Shown here piece by piece: positions 6,041-59,689 of a stretch of 59,689 nt of DNA. The notes under the pieces were generated by a model. That model had not been told where the DNA came from. It saw only the letters and a list, made by a program, of their open reading frames with translations, and did no database searches. Numbering within the stretch: the stretch's first letter is position 1; every line of letters starts with the position of its first letter. A program made the position numbers and the translations under genes. This DNA is from Candidatus Kaiserbacteria bacterium (lineage in GTDB: Bacteria; Patescibacteriota; Minisyncoccia; Phycocordibacterales; JABAAK01): assembly GCA_028820405.1 (NCBI GenBank), contig JAPPJI010000004.1, positions 1 to 59,689 of the forward strand, in the 5' to 3' direction.

Positions 6041-9000
6041 ATGCACCTTTCCGTCTCTTTTTTGCAAAAAAATTTCCTTTTTTTTATCCCCCTGCTTTGG
6101 TTTTTGCTGCTGCCGACAGTTTTTGGACAAACAAGTGTCACACAGGTCTCACTGCAGGCATATCTCCTCGCCGGTGATACTAACATACCGCTCCCGTCAA
6201 ACAACAGTACGATTCATCCGGGAGATCGTGTTCTCTTAGTTCTCAACGCAACACCTGCTCCTCAACAGCAAATTGCACCACACCTTCAGTGTGACCTCAC
6301 CAGTCTTGACGGTACGAAACGGACGATTGTTGACAGTGCACGAAAATTTCCTCAATCACGTCAGGTGACGATGAATATTGACGCCCGATCGGGGAGCGGG
6401 GAGGTTGTCTGCAGGGTTTCGGTCGGCTCTGACGCGTCAGCCGGCTATGTTATCGGAACACCGACGCACACCTTTCTCGTGGAAGCGAAGCCTGCGGTCT
6501 CCATCACGCCGTACGGAAGAGTGAAAGAAGGGAAACAGCCTGCAAGATTTTTGATAGAGGTGGTGGACATCATTAAAGGAATATCGGTTGACGTCGGTTA
6601 TGCCTGTTCCCGTAACGGTAACAGAATTATTGAGCGTTCCGGACAGGGTGCCCCCACCTTCACCGATACGAACCGCCGCCGCACGATCGAAGTTCCGGTG
6701 AACGAGTCGGATGGTGATGGTGACATTGTCTGTACAATACATGAGAGTAGTGCGTACCGAATTGTGCGGGGATCAGCAACGGTAGCGGTCGATGAGGATA
6801 TTCCCCTCGTTTCCCTCGACACAAAAGACAGGGTTGACCAGGTGAATGAACGTGATGCACGGATTGTTTTTTCTGTGCAGCTGAACAAGCCGGCACCGAG
6901 GGGCGGTCTGACCATTGACCTCTCTTGCAGAGGTTCCGGGTTCTCAGGCAATCTTCTCGACATACCGCTCGGCAATCGCGTTGTGCAGTCCGGGAGAAAG
7001 TTGCTCGCATTCCCGGTCAACTTCTCACATGTTCATGTTGCCCATAACCGCTCAAGTGCATCAATCACCTGTTCGCTCAAGAAGAGTGCCCTGTATGACG
7101 TGAACAGCCAGAAGCGGTCAAAGCGGGTGCAGGTGCAGGCGAAACCGCTCGTCTCACTTACCGCTCTGCCGGGTGTCTCGAGTGTGTACGCAGGAAGTGA
7201 GGCGGTTTTCAAGCTTTCTGGGGCGTATCTGACGAGTAGTCTGCTCGTGTCCCTGTCCTGCACTCACAACAAGGTGCCAATTAATATCGGGAGCAGCACC
7301 CTGTTATCAAAACAGCAGCCCGCACGATTCGTTACGATCCCTACCAATCAATTGGAAGAGGGACCGATCACGTGTAGCGTCAGCGATAACCCGGAGTACA
7401 ACGTGGAGAATCGTAAGGCGGAGATTCGGGTACTGAAAGCATCAGCCATTCCTGTTGTCTCCATTGATCCTGATGTCTCGCCGGTGACGATGACATTTGC
7501 AGGCAGCAAACCTTCTTCCGGTGGGTCGGCAAATATCGGGTTTGTTGTCCGTGCACAGTCGTCAGGAGCTGCTGGTGCGGATAGTGTGTTTGTTGACCTC
7601 TCATGCGGTCTCGGCACTCGCGGGTCGGCAGGAGAGTCAGCGCTGCGAAGGAGGGAAACAATCTCCGTTCCGATCAACGATCCGAGAGGACACACGGTAT
7701 CAATTTCCCTCACCAGACTTCCGTTCCGGGGAACGTTCGTCTACTGCAGATTGGAGGAGTACGGTGAAGGAAATAAAGGATCACTCTTTCAGGTAGGGAC
7801 ATCGAGATCGGCTGAGGTGGCGGTTAATCCGTTACCAGCTGTCTCACTGCAGACGAACAAAACAACAGCACTGTCAGTGAATGACATTGTCGAGGTACAA
7901 CTCCACTCTTTCTACACCGAAGGTCTCTCCGGTCCGGTACCGATTTCATGGAACTGCTCATTCCCCTCCGATGACGTTCGGGTGAGGAGAGTTGCAGTCA
8001 AAGGTCAGCAGGAGGTTGGTTCGTACGGCGGGAGAGCGGTGGTGACGAATAGTCCCGGGCTGACGGTTGTCGGACGTTTTCTTGTTGTCGGGTTGGGGAG
8101 CAGTCCGGGGCGAGGTTCTGTTGCTTGCTCACTTGAGCCGCAGACAGATTCCGATATTGTCTATCTTGATGACACCTTTGCCCTCGCAGTCACGTCGCCG
8201 CCCGCACTCTCAATCCATGCAGTTGTCAATGGTCCTGTGTATACCGACGGCATTGCACGATTTTCTGTCCGATCCAACGCTGCATCTGCTGCTGATATTT
8301 CTGCACGAGTTTCCTGTCGGTACGGTAGTGGCGGTGCGGTGCGGACCAGTCTTGCCAACAGCGGCGGATTTGCACTCATTCGGTCAGGGCTCCGGTCAAC
8401 AGATTTTACCGTTGATCTTCGGCTCGGTCACCGGCAGCAGTCACAGGTTGTCTGTTCACTGCAACCGGGCGGCGATTACGCAGTTATCGGCAGGCAGGCA
8501 TCCGTCACCCTTACCCAGCCAAGTGACCGGCCGATTATCAGCATTACTCCCCGCGACCCGGTGATCGGAAAAGAGAACGGCCGATTCCAAAACGCTGTTT
8601 TTGTCATCAACGGCACACGAATTCCTGCTGGCGGAGTAACCGTCGGTTTAAAGTGTCAGACACAAGACTTGTTCGTGCGAGATTTTCAAAAGACCGTTGA
8701 CCTCTCGCCCGGGTATTCGTCGGTAGCGCGTGTTGTGTCAATACAGAGGCTGCACGTGAGCCCCGGATACATTGCCTGTGCACTGCGTCCTTCTGAGAAT
8801 CGTCAGTATGATATCAGGGGATCACTGTCAGAGGCACTTGTGACCGTTGAGTATGAAGAAGGAATTTGTGGGCCGACCGGGTACTCTTGCGAGAGCGGGA
8901 AGCAGTATTGGGTCGAAGGTTATTACGGACCGAATACGTCCGCACTCAAGTGTCTCGGCGTCGGCGGCGGTGTCGACAGTGCAGTTTGTTTGGACGATAT

Positions 9001-11974
9001 TGTTCCGGCGACCCCCGATCCCGAACAACCTGGACCGCAGCCACCAACAGACACATGCCCGCTGCCATCAATATCTTTTGTTACCAAGACACCGGCAGTG
9101 AGGGAATCAGAGATGAATCGCACGATACGATTTGGTGTTCGGACTGACGTTTCAGGGCTAGAGACAAGATGCATCCCCACGTCAATATCCCTCTATTGTA
9201 AGGCGGTCGGCAGTGATGTGGAGATATTCCCGTCAGGGTCCCGTACGGCTGTTCCGGTTCGGACGCAGGGGAGTGGTGAAGTTGCCGTTGCGGTTGAGGT
9301 GGTGAGGGGAAATGTTCGTGATGTTGTTGTTGAATGCGGTATTGATGGCGGACCGAAACAAACGTTCATTGTTCCCGGATCCTCTCCTCAGGACCCTGCC
9401 ACCGATGCGTGTGTGATTCCAAGACTGGGCAGTATTGTTTCAGGTCAGTCTCTCTGTGCCGGTGGGTGGGCGATGTCAGGCGGTGTGAATGTGAGGATTA
9501 TCGGAGGTGATGCTACGTATGTTTGGAGTTGTACGGATGGTTCCGGGAATAGTCAAGAGTGTAAGCATGGGGTGAGAGAGGATGTTCCCGTTGAGCTGCG
9601 AGGGTATTACAAGATAGTAAATCATTCCGGTCCTGGTCGCGTTGATGTCGGACCTGAGCTGGTTCTGCAAAAAAATCAATCGACGCAGCTCTTTTTGCGT
9701 GCGTCTACGTTAGACGGAAGTCGGTTTGGGTTTGACATAAGGGACGTGAAGATAAGTTGCTACTATGAAAAGACAGAATCTGATCAGAGAGAATTCGTAT
9801 TTCCTGTAGGACCCGGAGGACCGGCTGTTTTTGTTACAATTCCTGCCGGCAGCAGTGAGAGCGCAGAGGTGCCTACTACTATTAAAGGTGCGGAACATCT
9901 GCAAGGATCTGACCTGACCTGTCGTATTGAGTTACACGGCAACAGCAATAATATCTACAATCCATCAGGCGGTGACATTGTTGTGGCAATTAATGGCGGT
10001 AAACGAGGAATTGGGGAATTTGAGCAATGCTGGATTGTGTTTTATGACAAGAGGGGGGCGGGAGGTATTCCGGACATCAATCCGGTAATCTCTGATGAGG
10101 GTGATTGCTACTACTATGTACAGAGGTGTGGCGGTCAAAGTTCAAGTGTGCCGAGAGATGGGATTGGAATCACGAGAACAATAGATAATTGTTACACCAT
10201 CGATCAGGTAAGAAAAATAGGAGCGTACATAAAGATCGGAGATCAGCCGTTGACTTGTGGGTGTCCGGGTAGAGGTTGTCAAAACTATGTTCCGCGAAAA
10301 ACAGATGGCAGTGCACAACTGTTTGATCCGGTTTCTGTTAATAATTTGATCAGGAACTACTTCTCGATACTGCATCCAGACTACCAAAACTCAATGGGCT
10401 GCACTCAGTTCAGGAGTGCGTATGCGAAAGGTAGCGGAGACTTTGACGGGAAGGACGGAGAAATAGCATATCCGTTTATCCCGGGTTCAGAACTGTACGG
10501 ATTTGTTTCGGAATCACCCACAGATTCTGGTTTCCGTCGACATTTCAGCAAACCAAGAACAGCACGAGCTATTTTTGACCGGCTGAGAACAAATGCGTTG
10601 CGGAATCCGTTTATGCATGGATTTGTCAAAGACCTTGAAGGATTTAGTGTTACCAGTACCGGTGACGATTCCTGTAACTTTAAAAAGAATGGTCAAACGG
10701 CAGCGATAGGTGCTGTTAATAGAAATCCAGATACCCAAGCAGTCTTTTCTTGCACAAATAGTATTGTGGGTCGTCAAGAAGGAGGTTATGCGTTCCCTGC
10801 ACAGATCGCATACTTTACTGAGCACAGAGGCGATACGGTTGGCGGCACAGAAGATGGAGAAGGATACGTTCTTGATGATTTGGTAATGGCAGTTTCTTTT
10901 GTTGAAAAGATTCGCGAGGGATCCGGTAGCAGCGGATTCTCGGTAGATAACCTACATATTAAGTGCTATGACAAAGAAATTGGCAGGAGTCCGGAATTAA
11001 TTTTTGATTCAAAGTATTCAGAAGGAGGGTTTGGGGTGAGTTATTTTGTTAAACATGACACAAAAAGATTAGGGTCGCCACACCTGGCATGGCTTGATTT
11101 ATATTCAGGATCATACTTTACTGAATACTGGAGAGACTTGTATTTTGGAGAAGTGAATAGGAAGAGTTTGTACTATCGGTACGCAGAGGTTATAGATGCT
11201 GTGATGTATGATTCCCTAAACAGAGCCGGGTTTATTGAACTATACTTGGGTGCTGGCACAAAAGAAGGTACGCCTAGATATGGGTATCATAAGCACAACA
11301 CGAAAGATCGTGACAGGGCCATTGTCCCAAGAATTTTTAATGCATTCATCCAGGGTTTGATTGATCCTGATGACCTTGATGAAGGTCCCGACTACTTTGA
11401 CCCGTTGGATCTGGTAACATCAACAGTGTTAACCGGAACTCCTCTTTTTGATACTTTTACCAAATTATTGCAGAATAAAAAGTCAATTAACAGTTACCCG
11501 TTGAGTAAAAACTATCTTATTTTACTCAACGGTTCGTGGAGAAATGATCGTTCATTGAAAAAACGGGATGTTATTGGCAGGAACATCTTTAACAGAACCC
11601 ACGCCGTGTTTGTTACCATACCAAGGAGTAAGTTTGGAAATAATGCGAAGTATATAGAAGGATCGTCTGCTATTCAATGTAGTTTGATACCAAATGGGTA
11701 TCATGTGTATGAAGACTATAACCACGGTATGTATGCAAATGTTCATTTCAACCTGGAACAGGTAGTATCACCACAAAATCAGAGTGCTGGCGGGACATCA
11801 GATAATCAACCCGTTTGTCCGGTACAGGTTAGTAATCACGATCTAGAAAACGAAGCAGATTGTTGCGAGATTCTTTTTGGTGGAGATACTGATCCTGATG
11901 ACAGTACGGGATGTCGACGGGTGATAGATACGTGGATAGAGTCGCAGCGAAATGGTTTGGGGGGGGGTAGGTAA
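6041..11974 (+). CDS. Giant secreted Cys-rich surface protein with tandem Calx-beta/Ig-like modules (N-terminal part)
   Basis: 1977 aa, signal peptide, repeated ~120-aa modules starting P.(V/I)S(I/L) with two Cys each; small Cys-rich repeats; ends just after a G9 tract. Confidence 0.8.
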   Translation: MHLSVSFLQKNFLFFIPLLWFLLLPTVFGQTSVTQVSLQAYLLAGDTNIPLPSNNSTIHPGDRVLLVLNATPAPQQQIAPHLQCDLTSLDGTKRTIVDSARKFPQSRQVTMNIDARSGSGEVVCRVSVGSDASAGYVIGTPTHTFLVEAKPAVSITPYGRVKEGKQPARFLIEVVDIIKGISVDVGYACSRNGNRIIERSGQGAPTFTDTNRRRTIEVPVNESDGDGDIVCTIHESSAYRIVRGSATVAVDEDIPLVSLDTKDRVDQVNERDARIVFSVQLNKPAPRGGLTIDLSCRGSGFSGNLLDIPLGNRVVQSGRKLLAFPVNFSHVHVAHNRSSASITCSLKKSALYDVNSQKRSKRVQVQAKPLVSLTALPGVSSVYAGSEAVFKLSGAYLTSSLLVSLSCTHNKVPINIGSSTLLSKQQPARFVTIPTNQLEEGPITCSVSDNPEYNVENRKAEIRVLKASAIPVVSIDPDVSPVTMTFAGSKPSSGGSANIGFVVRAQSSGAAGADSVFVDLSCGLGTRGSAGESALRRRETISVPINDPRGHTVSISLTRLPFRGTFVYCRLEEYGEGNKGSLFQVGTSRSAEVAVNPLPAVSLQTNKTTALSVNDIVEVQLHSFYTEGLSGPVPISWNCSFPSDDVRVRRVAVKGQQEVGSYGGRAVVTNSPGLTVVGRFLVVGLGSSPGRGSVACSLEPQTDSDIVYLDDTFALAVTSPPALSIHAVVNGPVYTDGIARFSVRSNAASAADISARVSCRYGSGGAVRTSLANSGGFALIRSGLRSTDFTVDLRLGHRQQSQVVCSLQPGGDYAVIGRQASVTLTQPSDRPIISITPRDPVIGKENGRFQNAVFVINGTRIPAGGVTVGLKCQTQDLFVRDFQKTVDLSPGYSSVARVVSIQRLHVSPGYIACALRPSENRQYDIRGSLSEALVTVEYEEGICGPTGYSCESGKQYWVEGYYGPNTSALKCLGVGGGVDSAVCLDDIVPATPDPEQPGPQPPTDTCPLPSISFVTKTPAVRESEMNRTIRFGVRTDVSGLETRCIPTSISLYCKAVGSDVEIFPSGSRTAVPVRTQGSGEVAVAVEVVRGNVRDVVVECGIDGGPKQTFIVPGSSPQDPATDACVIPRLGSIVSGQSLCAGGWAMSGGVNVRIIGGDATYVWSCTDGSGNSQECKHGVREDVPVELRGYYKIVNHSGPGRVDVGPELVLQKNQSTQLFLRASTLDGSRFGFDIRDVKISCYYEKTESDQREFVFPVGPGGPAVFVTIPAGSSESAEVPTTIKGAEHLQGSDLTCRIELHGNSNNIYNPSGGDIVVAINGGKRGIGEFEQCWIVFYDKRGAGGIPDINPVISDEGDCYYYVQRCGGQSSSVPRDGIGITRTIDNCYTIDQVRKIGAYIKIGDQPLTCGCPGRGCQNYVPRKTDGSAQLFDPVSVNNLIRNYFSILHPDYQNSMGCTQFRSAYAKGSGDFDGKDGEIAYPFIPGSELYGFVSESPTDSGFRRHFSKPRTARAIFDRLRTNALRNPFMHGFVKDLEGFSVTSTGDDSCNFKKNGQTAAIGAVNRNPDTQAVFSCTNSIVGRQEGGYAFPAQIAYFTEHRGDTVGGTEDGEGYVLDDLVMAVSFVEKIREGSGSSGFSVDNLHIKCYDKEIGRSPELIFDSKYSEGGFGVSYFVKHDTKRLGSPHLAWLDLYSGSYFTEYWRDLYFGEVNRKSLYYRYAEVIDAVMYDSLNRAGFIELYLGAGTKEGTPRYGYHKHNTKDRDRAIVPRIFNAFIQGLIDPDDLDEGPDYFDPLDLVTSTVLTGTPLFDTFTKLLQNKKSINSYPLSKNYLILLNGSWRNDRSLKKRDVIGRNIFNRTHAVFVTIPRSKFGNNAKYIEGSSAIQCSLIPNGYHVYEDYNHGMYANVHFNLEQVVSPQNQSAGGTSDNQPVCPVQVSNHDLENEADCCEILFGGDTDPDDSTGCRRVIDTWIESQRNGLGGGR

Positions 11975-23428: not shown

Positions 23429-24080
23429 GCGGGAGCGAAAAGAACGGGTGAAAAAACTCATCACTGTTTTACGAAAACACTTTCCAAATGCAAAGCTTGC
23501 ACTGAAGTACAAGACGCACTGGCAGCTGTTGGTGGCGGTGCAGCTGTCTGCACAATCAACAGACAAGAAGGTAAATGAAATTATGCCGTCGTTTGTAAAG
23601 CGGTTTCCTACCATGCAAGACTGTGCGACGGCTGATGTTGCAGACATTCAGGATGCGGTGAGTTCTGTGCTCTACTACCGAAACAAAGGGAAAAATATTC
23701 ACGCTGCCGCGAATACTATTATTACCAACTTCAATGGTCGGCTTCCGAGGACGATGGAAGAAATGCTCACTATTCCCGGGGTTGCGAGAAAGACGGCAAA
23801 TGTTCTTCTCGGAACACTGTTCCATGGTATGGAAGGTATTGTTGTTGATACCCATATGATTCGGTTTGCAAGACGATTCGGTCTGACAGATTATAAAGAT
23901 GCCGTTCGTATTGAGCGGGATTTGATGGAGATCGTTCCGAAAAAGGAGTGGTACCAATTTTCCTACTTTGTTGTTGAGTACGGCCGTTCATACGGAAATC
24001 CGCGGGGAAAAAAAGCACTGCATGCATCAGACCCGCTTGTTGCCGTGTATCCGAAGTCGGATAACTTCTGGCCGCGGTGA
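23412..24080 (+). CDS. nth: Endonuclease III (HhH-GPD glycosylase) lacking the Fe-S cysteines
   Basis: LLVAVQLSAQSTDKKVN, IPGVARKTANV, VDTH; start MSPKSK at 23412. Confidence 0.9.
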   Translation: MSPKSKRERKERVKKLITVLRKHFPNAKLALKYKTHWQLLVAVQLSAQSTDKKVNEIMPSFVKRFPTMQDCATADVADIQDAVSSVLYYRNKGKNIHAAANTIITNFNGRLPRTMEEMLTIPGVARKTANVLLGTLFHGMEGIVVDTHMIRFARRFGLTDYKDAVRIERDLMEIVPKKEWYQFSYFVVEYGRSYGNPRGKKALHASDPLVAVYPKSDNFWPR

Positions 24081-24137
24081 TGAAGTGTTGACAGAAAACG
24101 GCAGTACGGTTTGTTGCACGATATACTGCAAAGTAGT

Positions 24138-25220
24138 ATGGAACCTCGAAAAGAGTTGCAAGACTACGTTGACTTACTCGTCGCACGGTCTGCTTCAGAT
24201 ATCCACCTCGTTGTCGGATCAAAGCCGATTATGCGCGAGAAGCGTGAACTCGTTCCTATTATTCAAAAAGAAGTCATTACCGGCGATGACACAGCAGCAC
24301 TGTTCAGAATCTTGTGCGGCACATCCGTTGAGAGAGATGAAGACGTTCTCCGGGAGAGCAAGCATCTCTTGTTCGGTTACCAGCATGAGATTGAGGGCGG
24401 TCGGAAGGTTAATTTCCGCATCACCGCCTACATGGAACGGCAACACATCGCCATTGCAATGCGTCTCGTGCAGGAAACCGAGACGACGATTGAAGAGTTA
24501 GGACTGCCGCCAATATTAAAGTCCATCATGCAAGAGCCTGACGGACTCTTTCTCATTACCGGTCCGTCGGGGAACGGAAAATCAACGACGCTGACGGCGA
24601 TGATCAGTCACTGTAACAATACGATGCGAAAACACATCGTAACAATTGAAGACCCGATAGAGTTTATCTACCAGGACAAGAAGTCGATCATTTCACAGCG
24701 CGAAGTACCGATTGACGTTGAAACATTCCGTTCGGGAATTGACACCGCCTTGCGGTCTGACGCTGACATAATCATGATCGGAGAAATGCGAGAGATTGAC
24801 ACAATGCGAGCTGCGATGACGGCGGCAGAGGTCGGGCATCTCACCCTTTCAACGGTCAGTTCGAGCGGTGCGGCAAATACCGTGCATCGAATCATCGACT
24901 CATTTCCGGCGGATCAGCAGCCGCAAATCATCAGTCAACTCGCCAGTTCACTGCTCGGTGTCTGCTCTATCCGGCTCCTCCCCCGAATTACCGGCGGTCT
25001 TATTCCCGTGTGTGAGGTGTTGATAAACACACCGGCGGTCGGGAATCTGATTCGTGAGAACCGAATCACCAGTATCAAAACAGCCATTCAAACCGGTCGG
25101 GAAGAGGGGATGATCAGCCTTGAGCAGTCACTTGCCGATCTGGTGAAGGGGGGCGAGGTAGCCCTTGAGACCGCGACAGTTCATGCGAATGATGAACAGG
25201 AGCTCATGAAGTATTTGTAA
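24138..25220 (+). CDS. pilT: Type IV pilus retraction ATPase PilT/PilU family
   Basis: ASDIHL, GPSGNGKST, TIEDPIE, GEMR, GHL, NLIRE. Confidence 0.9.
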   Translation: MEPRKELQDYVDLLVARSASDIHLVVGSKPIMREKRELVPIIQKEVITGDDTAALFRILCGTSVERDEDVLRESKHLLFGYQHEIEGGRKVNFRITAYMERQHIAIAMRLVQETETTIEELGLPPILKSIMQEPDGLFLITGPSGNGKSTTLTAMISHCNNTMRKHIVTIEDPIEFIYQDKKSIISQREVPIDVETFRSGIDTALRSDADIIMIGEMREIDTMRAAMTAAEVGHLTLSTVSSSGAANTVHRIIDSFPADQQPQIISQLASSLLGVCSIRLLPRITGGLIPVCEVLINTPAVGNLIRENRITSIKTAIQTGREEGMISLEQSLADLVKGGEVALETATVHANDEQELMKYL

Positions 25221-25227
25221 AAGACGT

Positions 25228-26424
25228 ATGCAATTTACGTACAAAGTATTAAACAAAGAAGGGAAAGAGGTGAAAGGGCGTGTTGAAGCGACAAGTCGTT
25301 CGAATGCGATCAGCCTCCTGCAGGAAAACGGCTATACCGTTCTTGAGATTAAAGAGGACTTGGGGAAGTCTTTCAATTTTAATCTGTTCCTTCGGGTGAA
25401 GACCCAGGATATCATTGTTTTTTCCCGGCAGATTGCAACGCTCTTTGAGGCGGAGATTTCCGCACTTCGTGCATTTAATCTGGCTGCGGAAAATATGCCG
25501 AATAAGTATTTTCAGGGAATCTTGCTGGACATCGCTCGGAGCGTCGAGTCAGGGGTGACTGTTGAGAAGGCGTTCTGGAAACACAAAGACGTCTTCGGTG
25601 AGTTCTTTATTGCGGTCGTCTCGGTCGGTGAGCGGTCAGGAACACTGCCGCACTCTTTTACCTACATTGCCGATCATCTGGAGCGCACCTCTGAGATCAC
25701 GTCAAAACTCAGGAAAGCACTGACCTATCCGATATTTGTCGTTGTTACCTTCATTGCGGTGATGGTGTTGGTAATGGTGACGGTTATTCCGCAAATATCA
25801 ACCATCCTGACCAGCTCGGGAGCCGAATTGCCCACAGTCACCAACGTTGTGATCGGTATCAGCAACTTCATGCAGGATAATCTTTTTACGATGGCAATCG
25901 TTATTCTTTTCTCTATAGCCTCACTTATCTTCTACGCCAGGACAGAGGACGGAAAAGAGACGATTGACAGTGTTGTTCTGACATTCCCGCTCATCGGTCC
26001 CCTCCTTCAAGAATTCTATCTCGTCAGATTCTCCGGTAACCTCGGTGTCATGCTTGCAAGCGGTGTTCCGATTGTTTCATCACTGCAGATTTTGAGTCGG
26101 GTGATGATTAACAAAGTGTATCGTGACATGGTGCAAGACATCGCCAGTCGAGTGCGGCAGGGTGCGACATTGTCAACGGCACTGAAAGGGCATGAGTATG
26201 TCAGCAGAAATGTGGTGAGCATTATTAAAATTGGTGAAGAGGCGGGTGAGTTGAAAAAAATGGTTATGGTCATTAACAATTTCTATCAAAGAAAACTGCA
26301 AGATACCATCGATGTGATGATTGACCTGATTCAGCCGACAGTGATTGTCCTCCTCGGTCTCGGCGTCGGTCTCCTTATCGGGTCTGTCATCATCCCGATC
26401 TACTCTATCTCGAGTGCACTCTAG
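25228..26424 (+). CDS. pilC: Type IV pilus platform protein PilC / T2SS F family
   Basis: FSRQIATL, GERSGTL, ALTYP, GEEAGEL duplicated domains. Confidence 0.93.
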   Translation: MQFTYKVLNKEGKEVKGRVEATSRSNAISLLQENGYTVLEIKEDLGKSFNFNLFLRVKTQDIIVFSRQIATLFEAEISALRAFNLAAENMPNKYFQGILLDIARSVESGVTVEKAFWKHKDVFGEFFIAVVSVGERSGTLPHSFTYIADHLERTSEITSKLRKALTYPIFVVVTFIAVMVLVMVTVIPQISTILTSSGAELPTVTNVVIGISNFMQDNLFTMAIVILFSIASLIFYARTEDGKETIDSVVLTFPLIGPLLQEFYLVRFSGNLGVMLASGVPIVSSLQILSRVMINKVYRDMVQDIASRVRQGATLSTALKGHEYVSRNVVSIIKIGEEAGELKKMVMVINNFYQRKLQDTIDVMIDLIQPTVIVLLGLGVGLLIGSVIIPIYSISSAL

Positions 26425-26440
26425 TATGGTGGTGCAAAAG

Positions 26441-26477
26441 AAAAACACCCGCACAGTACGTGCGGGTGTTTGTTTTT
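26441..26477. terminator. Bidirectional intrinsic terminator
   Basis: AAACACCCGCAC-AGTAC-GTGCGGGTGTTT. Confidence 0.8.
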
Positions 26478-27337
26478 CACCGCATCTTGACCTTTCCCCA
26501 GCTTGTTGATTCGACACCTGTCGGGAACGGTGTTTGTTTTTCATACAGTCCCCAATCAGAGATGAAAACAGTGTGGGGGAATCCGTCACTGCCCTCTTCT
26601 TCGAGAGAGACAAAGACTATGAGTTGGCACCTCTCATCGAACAGACCAATGGCGCCTTCCGAGAGGATGACCCATGTTCCGCCGTTTTCATAGATGACGG
26701 AACCGTCATCTCGAACAGACCACTTCCACGTCCAGGAATTGTCCTGCTGTTCGAGAGTGAGGGATCCTCCTTTGCCGCCGGAATCGTAGGTGTACTGACC
26801 AGTGAAGCGTCGGTAATCATCAGCATCAGCGGTAAAGAAGGTAAATGTGTCTGCGTCAAAATCTCCCTCGCTGCAATAGGTTGAGGGCTCACCCTGAGCG
26901 GTACCTGTCGGGGATGGTGTTTGTTTTTCATACTGCCCCCAATCATAGGCGAACATGAAATTAGGAAATGCACCGTCACCCTCTCCTTCAAGAGTGATGA
27001 AACTGATGAGATTACAGTCCTCGTCAAACAGGCCGAGGGCATCGTCCGAGAGAATAACCCACGTTCCGCCATCTTCATAGACGGTGAGACCGTCATCTTG
27101 GATGACCCACCTCCATGTCCAGGCATTATCCTGCCGCTGGAAGGTCAGCACCTTCCTTCTGTCACCGGAATCGTAGGTGTACTGACCGGTGAGGCGTCGG
27201 TAATCATCAGCGGTAAAGGAGGTGAATGGACTTACATCAAAGTTTCCCTCGCCACAGCGGTGACTGACGGGTTCATTTTGAGCAACAGAGATTGTTGCCC
27301 AAAGGACGGATGCTGCCAACAGAACGATGCGTGCCAT
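26477..27337 (-). CDS. Secreted protein with two tandem ~120-aa beta-rich domains and C-terminal SWGKVK motif
   Basis: SD AAGGAGAAGG, signal peptide MARIVLLAASVLWATISVAQ, internal duplication, ends PTGVESTSWGKVKMR. Confidence 0.85.
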   Translation of the reverse strand: MARIVLLAASVLWATISVAQNEPVSHRCGEGNFDVSPFTSFTADDYRRLTGQYTYDSGDRRKVLTFQRQDNAWTWRWVIQDDGLTVYEDGGTWVILSDDALGLFDEDCNLISFITLEGEGDGAFPNFMFAYDWGQYEKQTPSPTGTAQGEPSTYCSEGDFDADTFTFFTADADDYRRFTGQYTYDSGGKGGSLTLEQQDNSWTWKWSVRDDGSVIYENGGTWVILSEGAIGLFDERCQLIVFVSLEEEGSDGFPHTVFISDWGLYEKQTPFPTGVESTSWGKVKMR

Positions 27338-27446
27338 AGCCTTCTCCTTGTGAGTGTGTGAGTGTTCACGCCTACTTACATTATACGCAGGCACCGTTTG
27401 TTTCACAATGTTTTTGAAGGGTATCACGTGTCGGTGAGTGCAAAAG

Positions 27447-27480
27447 AAAACCCCCCGCACGGTATGTGCAGGGGGTGTTG
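27447..27480 (-). terminator. Intrinsic terminator, paralogous to 26441 hairpin
   Basis: GTGCAAAAGAAAA-CCCCCCGCAC...GTGCAGGGGG resembles the 26432-26472 block. Confidence 0.7.
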
Positions 27481-28056
27481 TTATCGGGACAGCGATTTTA
27501 TCTGTCCCCAGCTCACCGATTCGACGGCTGTTGGGACCAGGTACAGTCTTCGGTCAAGGGAATATGAAAGACCTTCACGATGGATAGACACCAACTCAGA
27601 AAAAGATCCTTCACTGAAAACAAAAGATTCCACAAGTTGACCATACTCATCCAGCAGACCAATGCCACCAAATGGGAGCACAACCCACTCTCCACGGTCG
27701 TCGGAGAGTCCGAGGTCGCCAAACCAGACAACCTTTCGCCATGACCAGGAGGTTCCTCCTTGATCTCCGTTCAGGGTAAGGGCGACGGTCCGATCGCCTT
27801 TTTCGAAGACGTAGTAGCCGACGAATAGGTGACCAATATTAGACGGGTTTCGCAGATCAATGTCAATTCCTTCGCCACGAAGTGCCGCAAGGGGACTGTG
27901 GTCCTCGAGAGAGCACTCTTCGACGGCCGCTTGACCGCATACATTGGTCCAAAACACCTCCATCCAGGTCCAGTATTTGGGAACAGTACTGTCCCTGTTT
28001 TGAGCAACAGAAACCGTCGCCAAGAGGGTCAAAGATAAGGCAATAATGCGTAGCAT
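27481..28056 (-). CDS. Secreted paralog with one beta-rich domain and C-terminal SWGQIK motif
   Basis: SD GAGGAGGAG, signal peptide ..ATVSVAQN, GEWVVL..GGIGLLDE domain motif, ends PTAVESVSWGQIKSLSR. Confidence 0.85.
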   Translation of the reverse strand: MLRIIALSLTLLATVSVAQNRDSTVPKYWTWMEVFWTNVCGQAAVEECSLEDHSPLAALRGEGIDIDLRNPSNIGHLFVGYYVFEKGDRTVALTLNGDQGGTSWSWRKVVWFGDLGLSDDRGEWVVLPFGGIGLLDEYGQLVESFVFSEGSFSELVSIHREGLSYSLDRRLYLVPTAVESVSWGQIKSLSR

Positions 28057-28413
28057 GTTCTCCTCCTCAATAAGGTAGGGGTAAATGTCCGTATGTATAT
28101 TTTATACAATAAATCTTGATATTTGGCAACTATTCACCCCTTTTTGTGTGAGGGAGATGGCAGAAGAGGGGTCATTTTCCTGAAAATAAAGGGCTTTTGG
28201 AGCGAAAAAGGGTGTTTGTGAGGGGCATGGGTAAAAACAAGTCTTCCCTACTGGATAAGTTGATAAAATCCCCTTATTTAAAGCCTTTATTTAGAGAAGT
28301 AAAGGGTTTTTCGGGGGGGGGCTAGCATTTTTCCCCATTTAATGATATTGTGTGATACAAGCCTGTGTGTGCATTTCGGCTTCGGGATGCATATGCATGG
28401 CGATTAACTGAGT

Positions 28414-29427
28414 ATGAAAATCCAAATCAAACAATCAGTCGACCAAGCTCTACAAGCGCTCAACAAACAACAGCGTGAGGTCATCTCATTGCGTTTTGGT
28501 TTGGAGGATGGAAAGAAATGGGTACTCCAGGAAATCGCTAATGAATACAATCTGACCCGTGAGCGAATACGGCAAATCCAGAACACGGCACTGAAGCAGC
28601 TGCGAAAGGACCCCTGTGTCCAGTCGCTCTCTGAGGTAGTCAGCCATGTTGAGGACACCCTTCGTCTGTGTGGCGGTGTGTCATCCGAGGAGCGTCTGTG
28701 TCTGTCATGTGAGGCATCAACAAAGGCAGAGAAAAACTATGTACACCTGCTTCTGACGATTGCTGAGCAGTTCTCTCAGGCATCTGAAACCGACCACGCT
28801 GAAAAGCATTGGTACCTCGACGAGGAGAGTCGGGATCGGGCACACGGCATACTGGAACATCTCCATACGGAGATTGAAAAGAAGAAAGATGCGGTACTTG
28901 AGTCTCAGGAAGTGGAAGGGGTGCTTGCAAACGCACCGTACCAGTGTCCGGCAGACTATACCGTTATCACCGACCTCTCAAAGAAGGTAAGCCGAAACTA
29001 TCGCGGTGAGTGGGGAATCAAAGGTCACCCGGAGATTGCACTCAACACACTTGCCGGTTACATCACCGTTGTTCTGCGGACAGAAGGGAAGCCGCTTCAC
29101 TTCACAGAAATCTCAAAGAAGATTTCAGAGGCGAAGGGTTCACCGTGTCACCAGGAGAGCTGTCACAACGAACTGGTCCGACGAAAGGAGTTTATCCTCG
29201 TTGGTCGTGGTATGTATGCCCTTGCCGGTATGGGATACCGTTCCGGTACCGTTGCTGACATCATTCTGGCAATCCTCAAGGAGAAGGGTCCGATGACTCA
29301 AGCGGTTATTATCGAGCGCGTAAAGAAAGAGCGATTGGTGAAAGATCAGTCAATTGTTTCTGTTCTGAACAACAACAAGCAGTTCGTAAAAAACGAAGAT
29401 AAAGAGTACTGTTTGGCTGAGGAATAA
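28414..29427 (+). CDS. Sigma-70 region 4 / HARE-HTH domain protein
   Basis: LRFGL....LQEIA..YNLTRERIRQIQ; KPLHFTEI, HNEL, FILVGRGMYAL. Confidence 0.85.
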   Translation: MKIQIKQSVDQALQALNKQQREVISLRFGLEDGKKWVLQEIANEYNLTRERIRQIQNTALKQLRKDPCVQSLSEVVSHVEDTLRLCGGVSSEERLCLSCEASTKAEKNYVHLLLTIAEQFSQASETDHAEKHWYLDEESRDRAHGILEHLHTEIEKKKDAVLESQEVEGVLANAPYQCPADYTVITDLSKKVSRNYRGEWGIKGHPEIALNTLAGYITVVLRTEGKPLHFTEISKKISEAKGSPCHQESCHNELVRRKEFILVGRGMYALAGMGYRSGTVADIILAILKEKGPMTQAVIIERVKKERLVKDQSIVSVLNNNKQFVKNEDKEYCLAEE

Positions 29428-29449
29428 GAAACTGGTGTATAACTAGGGT

Positions 29450-30931
29450 GTGTACCCGGTCTTCAGGAATAACATCTATACTCCTTTTGTTCGAATCGGA
29501 TTCGTCTGTATATTCCTGTCGTACGTTGCGTTCATCACCTACAACATAACCACGCCCGGCTATATCATCGAGGCATTCTTCACTAACCCGTCATTCTTTG
29601 TCGCTCTGCGATTCCTCTCCGTTTACCTCGTGCTTGCCTCTCTCGTTATCCTCACTGTTGCCGCTGTTATCTACGCATACATTGAGATCGGGAGATACAA
29701 GCAGCAGGTTGCATACCTGACCGAGGATCGTAAACTGCTTGAAGTTCGACTGCCGGAAGACACCCAAGAAACACTCTCGTCCATGGAGGCGGTGCTGGAG
29801 ATGATTGCATATACCGGCGGTGAAGGGCTGTGGTTTCCCGTGTGGTGGTTTGGAAAGAAACGGCCGATGTATTCATTTGAAATTGTGTCAAAAGGCGGTA
29901 TCGTTTCTTTCCTTATCCACACGAGGGCAAACCTTGCACCGGCGGTGATGTCTGCCATATACGCTTTTTACCCCCGTGCACAGGTCAACGAGGTTGATGA
30001 CTACACGCACGACTTTGAGTATGATAAAGAAAAGGTCTCGGTGTTCTCATTTGAGTGGAAACTGCTGCAGGACAACAATCCGTTGCCGATAAAGACGTAC
30101 GTTGAGTTTCAACTGGAGCGGTATCCGGGAACGAGTGGTTTGCCGCCGGATGTGGTCGGATCTGCCATGCAGCCGACGCGACCGCTTGTTGACCCGCTCG
30201 CCCCTCTCTATGACCTGTTCGGGTCAATTGGTGGTGATGAGCAATTGTGGGTGCAGTACGTATTCCGTGCACAAAAATATGCACGGTCCCGGGAAGATGT
30301 TGCAAGTGACCCGGTTACCGTAGACTACTGGAACAAACAGAAGCTGCCTGATGAGATTCGGGACGCACTCTTTGACCTTGAAAAGAGGGTGAAGGAGGGG
30401 CGTGCCGCTGACACGGATCCCGCAATTCTCAGTTCAGCAGAACGTCGACTGCAGGCGATCGGTCCAAGACTTATCGAAAAACAGGCAGTTGAAGTCGGTA
30501 TTCGTATGATGTACGTAACCCCTGCCGGATCGTTTAATCCTGCCCGCCTTGCACCGCTGACGGCGGTGTACAAGCTGACAAACGCAGATGAGAATGCCCT
30601 CATTCCGCACGGGACACTCCTGACTGACAAGTTTGAGGTGCCTGCCCTTGAGCCGCCGCGACAGGACAAGGAGGCGGAGAAACAACTGCTTCTCCAGTTG
30701 TACCGTGACCGTCTATTCTGGTATGCTCCTGCACTGTTTATGTATCAGATATCAGACGGAAAACGGTGGTCAAAAACGGTGGAAGGTCCGACCAGGCCGA
30801 GAATTGCGTCAGTGATGACAACAGAAACACTCGCAACCATCTGTCACTTCCCGACGGTGTATGTAAAGACGCCGACGGTGAAGCGAATTCTCTCAACGAC
30901 CGTTGAGCCGCCGGAGAACCTGCCGGTATAA
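29450..30931 (+). CDS. Conserved CPR-type membrane-anchored hypothetical protein
   Basis: N-terminal TMs, LLEVRLP, SFEIVS, LPIKTY, ELATxxHFP-like motif; resembles N-terminal regions associated with CPR VirD4-like ATPases. Confidence 0.6.
   Translation: MYPVFRNNIYTPFVRIGFVCIFLSYVAFITYNITTPGYIIEAFFTNPSFFVALRFLSVYLVLASLVILTVAAVIYAYIEIGRYKQQVAYLTEDRKLLEVRLPEDTQETLSSMEAVLEMIAYTGGEGLWFPVWWFGKKRPMYSFEIVSKGGIVSFLIHTRANLAPAVMSAIYAFYPRAQVNEVDDYTHDFEYDKEKVSVFSFEWKLLQDNNPLPIKTYVEFQLERYPGTSGLPPDVVGSAMQPTRPLVDPLAPLYDLFGSIGGDEQLWVQYVFRAQKYARSREDVASDPVTVDYWNKQKLPDEIRDALFDLEKRVKEGRAADTDPAILSSAERRLQAIGPRLIEKQAVEVGIRMMYVTPAGSFNPARLAPLTAVYKLTNADENALIPHGTLLTDKFEVPALEPPRQDKEAEKQLLLQLYRDRLFWYAPALFMYQISDGKRWSKTVEGPTRPRIASVMTTETLATICHFPTVYVKTPTVKRILSTTVEPPENLPV

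Positions 30932-57207: not shown

Positions 57208-59689
<2,482 letters not shown>

Follow-up and report, generated by a model that had tools for sequence, protein, structure and literature searches.

A C-terminal WGxIK tag on exported orphan proteins in a genus of Candidatus Kaiserbacteria

Introduction

Among the described systems that place a signal at the C-terminus of exported proteins are the type IX secretion system (T9SS) and the sortase and exosortase pathways, and it is with these that we compare the short peptide that ends the products of two neighbouring genes, A and B, of a Candidatus Kaiserbacteria bacterium, a member of the Candidate Phyla Radiation (CPR; Patescibacteria). Both genes lie on contig JAPPJI010000004.1 of assembly GCA_028820405.1; the whole stretch analysed, called the window below, is 59,689 nucleotides long and belongs to a 637-kb, 92%-complete genome, here designated G000. 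The type A C-terminal domain of T9SS (TIGR04183/PF18962, and FlgD_ig-like PF13860) is, like the tails of A and B, a C-terminal signal on Sec-exported proteins, in its case of many families, and it is found in bacteria of the Fibrobacteres–Chlorobi–Bacteroidetes group; the phyla with the tag discussed here have it too. It is, however, a folded domain of roughly 80–100 residues, whereas the tails of A and B are peptides of 13–17 residues that match none of TIGR04183, PF18962 and PF13860 at E values up to 1 in Pfam and NCBIfam. Since no model matches and the tails are far too short, identity with the T9SS domain was rejected. Neither an outer membrane nor T9SS is known from CPR cells.

The LPXTG signals of sortases and the PEP-CTERM signals of exosortases are likewise short conserved C-terminal motifs on exported proteins, and they serve for surface attachment. 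These signals consist of the motif, a hydrophobic helix and a basic tail, whereas the tails of A and B have no hydrophobic stretch past the motif. This identity was also rejected, for want of the hydrophobic helix and of a sortase in the genome: PF04203 has no match in the 92%-complete G000 and was found in 3 controls. A third point of comparison is short-motif mimicry by intracellular bacteria, as in Legionella, whose effectors may end in a host CAAX prenylation motif. The likeness is that a few secreted proteins carry a short terminal motif which would be read only by the machinery of a partner; the difference is that the Legionella case runs from bacterium to eukaryote and was shown by experiment, while the one we infer here runs from bacterium to bacterium. 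A literature search on mimicry by CPR bacteria found nothing relevant.

The tag in other phyla

Judged by pattern and profile, the tails of A and B are real copies of an unnamed C-terminal tag, which can be written as [ST][PA]VE-x-x-[ST]WG-x-IK-x-[LM]-[YF]-R-stop. A first-pass annotation of the window, made from its letters, had described A and B as secreted paralogs with near-identical signal-peptide ends and a shared C-terminal motif. Their translations bear out the positions, the signal-peptide ends (..ISVAQN in A, ..VSVAQN in B) and the tails, and BLASTP confirms the paralogy (E 5e-13 and 6e-12). When the genome was searched for tails of this kind, as had then been proposed, the C-terminal end WG.[IVLM]K.{0,8} was met in A and B only, among 4619 stop-to-stop open reading frames (ORFs) of at least 60 amino acids (aa). 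The tag stands at the extreme C-terminus of both, the stop coming 4 (B) and 2 (A) residues past the Lys.

A codon-degenerate form of VExx[ST]WGxIKxxxR-stop has at least 128 loci in a collection of species-representative genomes, where about 7 would be expected by chance on simple arithmetic. Among the matches listed, a hand count of titles gives 32 from Eisenbacteria/Eiseniibacteriota, 7 from Latescibacterota, 3 under names beginning Krumholzibacteri-, 7 labelled Gemmatimonadota, 2 from Effluviviaceae, 5 with other names (one of them spurious, with an in-frame stop, and one a probable chance match) and 72 from unnamed metagenome-assembled genomes (MAGs); none of those listed is from CPR. Together with the profile described next, these loci substantiate the earlier attribution of the motif to MAGs of the Latescibacterota, Eisenbacteria and Krumholzibacteria type. 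A scan of viral_contigs gave a single spurious match, interrupted by an in-frame stop and present at two loci. The tag is absent from Pfam and NCBIfam within the scans made, and no paper on the motif was found in the literature searched.

The 130 usable tails among the matches listed read, from position -17 to the last residue, P, T/S, P/A, V, E, x, S/T, S/T, W, G, x, I, K, A/S, L/M, Y/F, R. At the positions that the pattern left free they agree with A and B: P at -17, T/S at -16, P/A at -15, S at -12, A/S at -4 and L/M at -3. In 29 tails from two tag-rich genomes, where VE was not forced by the search, V still occupies -14 in 20 of 29 and E occupies -13 in 21 of 29. On the profile of these 29 tails, the last 17 residues of B score 36.1 bits, the training tails scoring at least 34.3 (median 45.1) and the next of 4584 ORFs of the genome 0.4. 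With the 13-residue core, B scores 31.7 and A 31.0 bits, against 9.6 for the next-best ORF (n=4584). When only the 11 positions outside [ST]WGx[IV]K are counted, B still ranks 1 of 4584, with 13.2 bits against 7.1 for the next.

Five tag-using genomes contain 2, 4, 5, 9 and 40 matches to a stop-anchored pattern stricter than the one applied to G000 above, with 0 control matches, and in the tag-rich genomes G463 and G461 signal peptides can be seen by eye wherever the locus includes the N-terminus of the bearer. A and B thus resemble the bearers in Eisenbacteria, Latescibacterota, Krumholzibacteriota and Gemmatimonadota-labelled MAGs in combining a strictly C-terminal tag with an N-terminal Sec signal peptide, and they have in common with them the core P-T-[AG]-V-E-S-x-S-W-G-x-[IV]-K, the Arg at the very end and, in the case of B, Leu at -3. 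Unlike the usual tag users, their owner is a CPR organism, and its two bearers (2 of 4619 ORFs) form one protein family, whereas tag-using genomes have many unrelated bearers, up to dozens per genome. The usual end is also altered, the aromatic residue at -2 being replaced by Ser in B and the end of A being shortened to Met-Arg.

Distribution in Patescibacteria and recurrence within the genus

The search in CPR consisted of three codon-degenerate fixed patterns run on three samples of 400 other genomes, which overlap by some two dozen genomes. In the sample of the phylum, the VE pattern matched in 2 of 400 genomes, both times inside long ORFs, against 4 control matches, and neither match is tag-like. 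A stop-anchored pattern matched in 4 of 400 genomes of the class (3 controls), none of the matches being tag-like: three were inspected by script and the fourth has in-frame stops. In the order, TWGxIKxx-stop matched in 1 of 399 genomes beyond G003, at a site that ends in TGG, not in a stop, against 4 controls. The tag is therefore not common in Patescibacteria, as had been supposed, but it does recur in G003, a genome of the same genus. The related genomes sampled measure 0.3-2.1 Mb throughout, as befits CPR.

G003 is complete (661,662 bases), and exactly two of its ORFs have such tails (Table 1). Both bearers have signal peptides, match no Pfam family, are singletons in the protein collection and lie amid small lipoprotein-like genes; a search with one of the two, the 331-aa bearer, found no ortholog in the family. 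Their tails are of a variant, TTWGxIK plus basic residues, and stand on proteins unrelated to A and B. From this placement on unrelated exported proteins it follows, as far as sequence can tell, that the WGxIK tag recurs in this CPR genus in a second variant. Tagged exported orphans are accordingly present, two each, in 2 of the 6 species of the genus; the bearers of one species are unrelated to those of the other, and the tag takes the VE..SWG form with an [ST]R-type end in the first and the TTWG form ending in basic residues in the second. What is new here is the presence of the tag, in two variants, in one CPR genus.

Whole-genome scans of G001 and G005 revealed no such tails. It was the loosest pattern, run on the 11 other genomes of the family, that brought the tails of G003 to light; G004 was covered by this pattern scan. 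In G002, an end ..SWGMLKE belongs to DNA polymerase I and was rejected as chance.

Conservation of the tails, their ends and the search for a reader

The two paralogs share 9 of 13 residues in the tail, whereas their identity across the 119 aligned positions of the domain is 32% (binomial P 0.0065). The codon identity at conserved residues, 5 of 8 in the tail and 21 of 35 in the domain, is not higher in the tail, which argues against recent gene conversion and in favour of the tail being the more tightly constrained part. The same is indicated by the recurrence in G003.

The ends of the tails, SLSR in B and MR in A, depart from the x-[LM]-[YFW]-R end of the tag. In a metagenome scan with a WSN codon at -2, 43 loci were found, among which, by our own count, this position is W in 24, C in 3, R in 1 and S/T in 14, with one odd case. 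The tails with S/T at -2 include ..AVEAISWGQIKALSR, ..PTAVENNSWGSVKQQTR, ..AVEAVSWGQIKAMSR and ..AAVESASWGQIKSMSR, as well as the ends (..PTAVE..SWG.VK.Q[ST]R) of a 179-aa fasciclin family, whose named cluster members are proteins of Gemmatimonadota and Latescibacterota MAGs, some from an ocean survey. The nearest metagenome cores are identical to that of B at 11 of 13 positions. Because S/T at -2 recurs elsewhere, the end of B can be regarded as a natural subvariant, not necessarily as decay; the end of A remains unique among the tails examined.

Two kinds of bearer met in the metagenomes deserve brief description. Loci L222 (3004-3939, minus strand) and L223 (3004-3951, minus strand) encode very acidic exported proteins of about 315 aa that end ..SWGQIKA[LM]SR and contain repeated D-x-N/D-x-D-G-V-I-D-E-E-E motifs of calcium-binding-like appearance. 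Loci L203 and L217, from two metagenomes, contain the same 72-aa frame, an Ig-like fragment followed by the tail ..AAVESASWGQIKSMSR, which looks like a remnant or a very short bearer.

As regards a reader, 11 of 659 ORFs of G000 have a tblastn match in G003 but none in G001, G002 and G005: an M17 aminopeptidase, an IrrE/DUF4411 pair, an NYN protein, two AAA_14 ATPases, a DUF4013 membrane protein, a 987-aa secreted P-domain/CARDB protein and three tiny ORFs. G000 also encodes an S41 C-terminal processing peptidase. PF14349 (SprA) has no match in G000, and likewise none in 14 control genomes. Over the last 10 residues of the tag, the mean hydrophobic moment at 100 degrees is 0.47 (0.37 in shuffled sequences) and that at 170 degrees is 0.52 (0.36 when shuffled), a weak signal that does not separate helix from strand. 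The pair consisting of an IrrE-like (Peptidase_M78) and a DUF4411/PIN gene (contig C10, 17422-19094, minus strand), 63-70% identical to its counterpart in G003 and unmatched in G001, G002 and G005, is probably a mobile toxin-antitoxin-like module.

The domain of A and B

Apart from their signal peptides and tails, A and B consist of a two-Cys domain some 120 residues long, present in two copies in A and one in B; the copy of B is 31-32% identical to either copy of A. Neither protein matches a family in Pfam or NCBIfam, the only hit being a chance 14-bit match to ATP-synt_8. A word-index search of 5.8 billion clusters with A, B and the last 40 residues of B returned only self, and a six-frame search with B in 60 related genomes, five of them of the same genus, found nothing outside G000. 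A profile search of 1.84 billion representatives returned self and 9 non-self matches, all of them long multi-stretch proteins, which were taken as composition matches (6 of 9 scanned are Calx-beta, FG-GAP, SpaA or RHS-type repeat proteins). Nor does the domain have a relative among 132 tag-bearing ORFs (hmmsearch, best E 0.05), and phmmer comparison of A and B with the ORFs of the 43 tag-bearing metagenome loci gave only tail-sized matches of 4-11 bits. The homology check suggested in the first pass thus turned up no relative.

The AlphaFold models are all-beta, and a model of a single domain copy has eight strands; with predicted local distance difference test (pLDDT) scores of 47.0 and 39.9, too low for a fold search, they do not establish the fold. 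Feature matches in the ESM Atlas, at 0.79-0.83, fall under the 0.9 bar and serve as leads only. The weak neighbours there are lipocalin-like barrels (NlpE, DUF3471, DUF6265, Lipocalin_4), with template-modelling (TM) scores by query of 0.28-0.39, below the bar. The A/B domain resembles such barrels (the NlpE N-domain PF04170, DUF3471, DUF6265, Lipocalin_4) in its length of about 120 residues and in its all-beta models; it is unlike them in having no Pfam match, in its low TM scores and in the low pLDDT of its models.

Nativeness of the block

Taken together with their surroundings, A and B read as native, separately transcribed genes of the CPR bacterium. The only public sequencing run that contains the stretch is labelled as a sponge metagenome and may be the source sample; no RNA run was among the matches listed, and two further runs, X2 and X3, gave nothing over the region. 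An independently built contig of 35,070 bases (run X1), probably from the same sample as the assembly, spans positions 24000-30500 with 0 differences, no joint and no loose ends.

The block lies between pilT-pilC (24111-26424), whose products belong to the T2SSE and T2SSF families, and a sigma-70-region-4/HARE-HTH gene (28414-29427). These flanking genes are 46-61% identical to genes of five genomes of the same genus, in which pilC and the sigma-like gene are not adjacent but at least 17 kb apart, so that the block stands at a synteny break. In G001 and G005, pilC is followed by type IV pilin-like genes with the N-termini ..GFTLMELLV.. and ..GFTLIELLIV.. (L004, 2725-4193; L005, 2823-4074), and the place of these genes is here taken by the convergent tagged pair A and B.

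Possible readings of the tag

The tag, with or without the gene that surrounds it, would have come long ago from a tag-using lineage, before the duplication that gave A and B, and would have been kept by selection, hence would be read by something. Up to this point, that is, for a real and acquired tag, we consider the account highly probable, and that the tag is still functional is likely. A and B would be exported by Sec and would fold as one or two small beta domains that contain Cys and belong to a family specific to the lineage, both proteins ending in a short, non-hydrophobic, basic peptide. What reads the tag would be the envelope of a tag-using neighbour or host, and not machinery of the CPR cell itself; once outside, A and B would use the borrowed tag to attach to the tag-using cell or to be sorted by it, a case of short-motif mimicry. 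This host-directed reading is the mechanism that we prefer, with a probability of roughly 0.45, because it fits the small number of bearers, the failure to find a reader in CPR, the two variants in two species, and the habitat. As to the last, one study reports operational taxonomic units (OTUs) of Latescibacteria, Gemmatimonadetes and Poribacteria in sponges (PMC6456735), and another reports Kaiserbacteria OTUs in 45, 26 and 7 sponge species (PMC7426153).

Several observations weigh against this account. The domain has no relatives, and a tail of 13-17 residues is the sole tie to other phyla; for this reason gene transfer is not demonstrated and no donor can be named. The proposal that the genes were acquired from a tag-using lineage is thus supported only in the link of the tail to those phyla. 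Neither is the DNA foreign-looking, as the first-pass annotation had called it: its guanine-plus-cytosine (GC) content (0.51-0.52) and GC at third codon positions (0.52-0.55, the genome mean of the latter being 0.52) are typical of the genome, the codon scores of A and B lie at the 33rd-39th percentile of 513 ORFs, the block ranks at the 65th percentile of 2-kb windows in tetranucleotide distance, and native style is seen in the terminators too. Neither A nor B has the aromatic residue that usually occupies -2 (Y/F in 123 of 130 tails; Y/F/W in 29 of 29), and the two-residue end of A was not found in five tag-using genomes; both features could mean decay. The comparison that revealed no obvious sorting machine among the 11 ORFs that G000 shares with G003 to the exclusion of G001, G002 and G005 is a weak test, confined to five genomes and assuming one reader for two variants. 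The fixed patterns used in CPR would miss other variants of the tag, as the first two missed those of G003. Finally, the tag users are presumably diderms, and a reader on the periplasmic side of such cells would be out of reach for any protein that a CPR cell sets free.

The same facts can be read in other ways. That the tag acts on the CPR cell itself, holding A and B on its own surface after Sec export, is in our opinion a rather doubtful alternative, whether the tag needs no dedicated reader and makes contact with membrane or wall itself, for example through its Trp, its Ile and its basic end, or an unrecognised CPR protein serves as the reader. It would account for the conservation of the tail between the paralogs and for the occurrence of four tagged exported proteins across two species of the genus; the tag is a short basic peptide of moderate amphipathicity, a peptide that needed no partner would function in whatever lineage received it, and an S41 C-terminal processing peptidase is at hand in the genome. 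Yet two substrates per genome compare poorly with up to 40 in tag-using genomes, no family resembling envelope machinery is exclusive to the two tag-bearing CPR genomes, and there is no sortase; the amphipathicity is weak and fits helix and strand equally, and the absence of a self-sufficient peptide from three 400-genome samples of Patescibacteria would be odd. Less probable still is a relic, in which a tag-bearing gene was once acquired, no CPR reader exists, the tails are decaying and A and B act only through their beta domains. The missing aromatic residue, near-invariant elsewhere, the end of A cut to two residues in a form not found in five tag-using genomes and the lack of a reader candidate are what such a relic would leave; however, conservation between A and B is about twofold higher in the tail than in the domain and nothing hints at recent conversion, the score of B falls among those of genuine tails, S/T occurs at -2 elsewhere as a natural and conserved subvariant, and a second species of the genus has intact tails of the other variant on other proteins.

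Two further explanations concern whether there is anything to explain. Chance or convergence, by which the tails would merely resemble the tag, is close to refuted by the profile scores and by the first rank of B at the 11 positions outside the motif. The motif is short, and the cytoplasmic DNA polymerase I of G002, ending ..SWGMLKE, shows what chance can do; but scores of 36 and 31 bits stand against next-best values of 0.4 and 9.6 among about 4600 ORFs, the agreement extends to 6-7 positions outside the motif as given in the first pass, and both A and B have signal peptides, as tag bearers do, so that we regard this explanation as very improbable. The least probable of all is an artefact, with the block being mis-assembled or mis-binned DNA of another organism. 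Chimeric MAG assemblies do occur and the block stands at a synteny break; nevertheless, the 35,070-base contig of run X1 passes through 24000-30500 with 0 differences, the composition is native, the flanks match genes of the same genus, the terminator of A is common to pilC and its style recurs on another contig. The fear of a chimeric mis-assembly, voiced in the first pass, thus finds no support.

A bolder form of the host-directed reading is that this CPR genus marks a few fast-evolving exported proteins with the address tag of the bacteria on which it lives, and that the variant names the host of each species, G000 using the VE..SWGxIK..SR type of marine Latescibacterota and Gemmatimonadota-labelled MAGs and G003 the TTWGxIK-plus-basic type; as a joint claim this is rather unlikely. 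If true, it would be the first case of sorting-signal mimicry between bacteria. The hosts of most CPR bacteria, and the ways in which they hold and manipulate them, are unknown; if a partner cell does read the tags, they would allow host prediction from sequence alone and would represent a new kind of interaction mechanism. Moreover, if the tag works after transfer into a cell without an outer membrane, its reader must be external to the bearer or not needed at all.

Gene structure and neighbourhood

The features of the locus, together with the two tagged genes of G003, are collected in Table 1.

Table 1. Positions of tagged genes and associated features in the window and in G003
Feature	Position	Strand	Length	Basis or remark
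Gene A: signal peptide, orphan beta-rich domain in two tandem copies, C-terminal tag	26477..27337	-	286 aa
Signal peptide of A, residues 1-19, MARIVLLAASVLWATISVA, predicted cut before QN	27281..27337	-		sequence reading
Domain copy 1 of A, residues 22-146, two Cys, end ..EKQTPSPTG	26900..27274	-		62% identity with copy 2
Domain copy 2 of A, residues 147-271, two Cys	26525..26899	-		low-confidence all-beta AlphaFold model
Tag of A, PTGVESTSWGKVKMR, whole core, just two residues past Lys	26480..26524	-		profile score
Intrinsic terminator of A, hairpin and TTTTTCTTTTGCAC, bidirectional	26432..26471	-		folding
Promoter-like site 5' of A, TTGTGA-17-TATAAT, 10/12 consensus positions	27380..27408	-		consensus match
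Gene B: signal peptide, one domain copy, C-terminal tag	27481..28056	-	191 aa
Signal peptide of B, residues 1-18, MLRIIALSLTLLATVSVA	28003..28056	-		sequence reading
Tag of B, PTAVESVSWGQIKSLSR	27484..27534	-		36.1 bits on 17-position profile
Intrinsic terminator of B, hairpin and TTTTCTTTTGCAC	27438..27476	-		folding
G003 bearer 1, ..KKLTTWGAIKNRK-stop (..LTTWGAIKNRK)	G003:C1:91541-92536		331 aa	locus L243/L244 set
G003 bearer 2, ..SQITTWGNIKRR-stop (..ITTWGNIKRR)	G003:C1:116183-117349		388 aa	locus L243/L244 set

Judged by eye, the predicted signal peptide of A has a basic n-region, a hydrophobic core and S-V-A at -3 to -1. A 327-aa form of A with a GTG start (to 27460) was rejected, since this GTG lies inside the terminator of B and the ATG at 27337 has AAGGAG about 8 nt upstream. 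In the public annotation, B is a 160-aa form (P0003) that begins at Met32 and so drops the signal peptide; the upstream ATG (28056) is preceded by a GGAGGAG ribosome-binding site and opens an N-terminus that resembles the signal peptide of A. The promoter-like site of A is a consensus match only, 2 such sites having been found against 2.5 expected in shuffles.

The hairpins 3' of A and B are homologous (-20.9 and -22.5 kcal/mol, with z near -4.7 and none of 200 shuffles folding as well), and both are followed by TTTTCTTTTGCAC, the reverse of GTGCAAAAGAAAA; that of A also closes pilC on the plus strand. A third hairpin with the same GCAC-N5-GTGC core and the exact TTTTCTTTTGCAC tail lies on contig C23 (about 58402-58440, minus strand), behind an unrelated gene. 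Part of the 3' similarity of A and B is therefore the house style of this genome and not a trace of duplication alone: the terminators are homologous, as had been claimed, but they are not private to the pair. Across the genome, 12 sites have the form GCAC-loop-GTGC with a T run behind it.

Elsewhere in the window, a 1977-aa ORF (6041-11974, plus strand) matches no Pfam family at E up to 0.001. Directly after the sigma-70-region-4/HARE-HTH gene lies a 493-aa ORF (29450-30931, plus strand) with predicted N-terminal membrane helices and no Pfam family. The divergent spacer between B and the sigma-like gene (28057-28413) is 357 bases long, with a GC content of 0.41, and contains a G8 run and several A/T-rich direct words.

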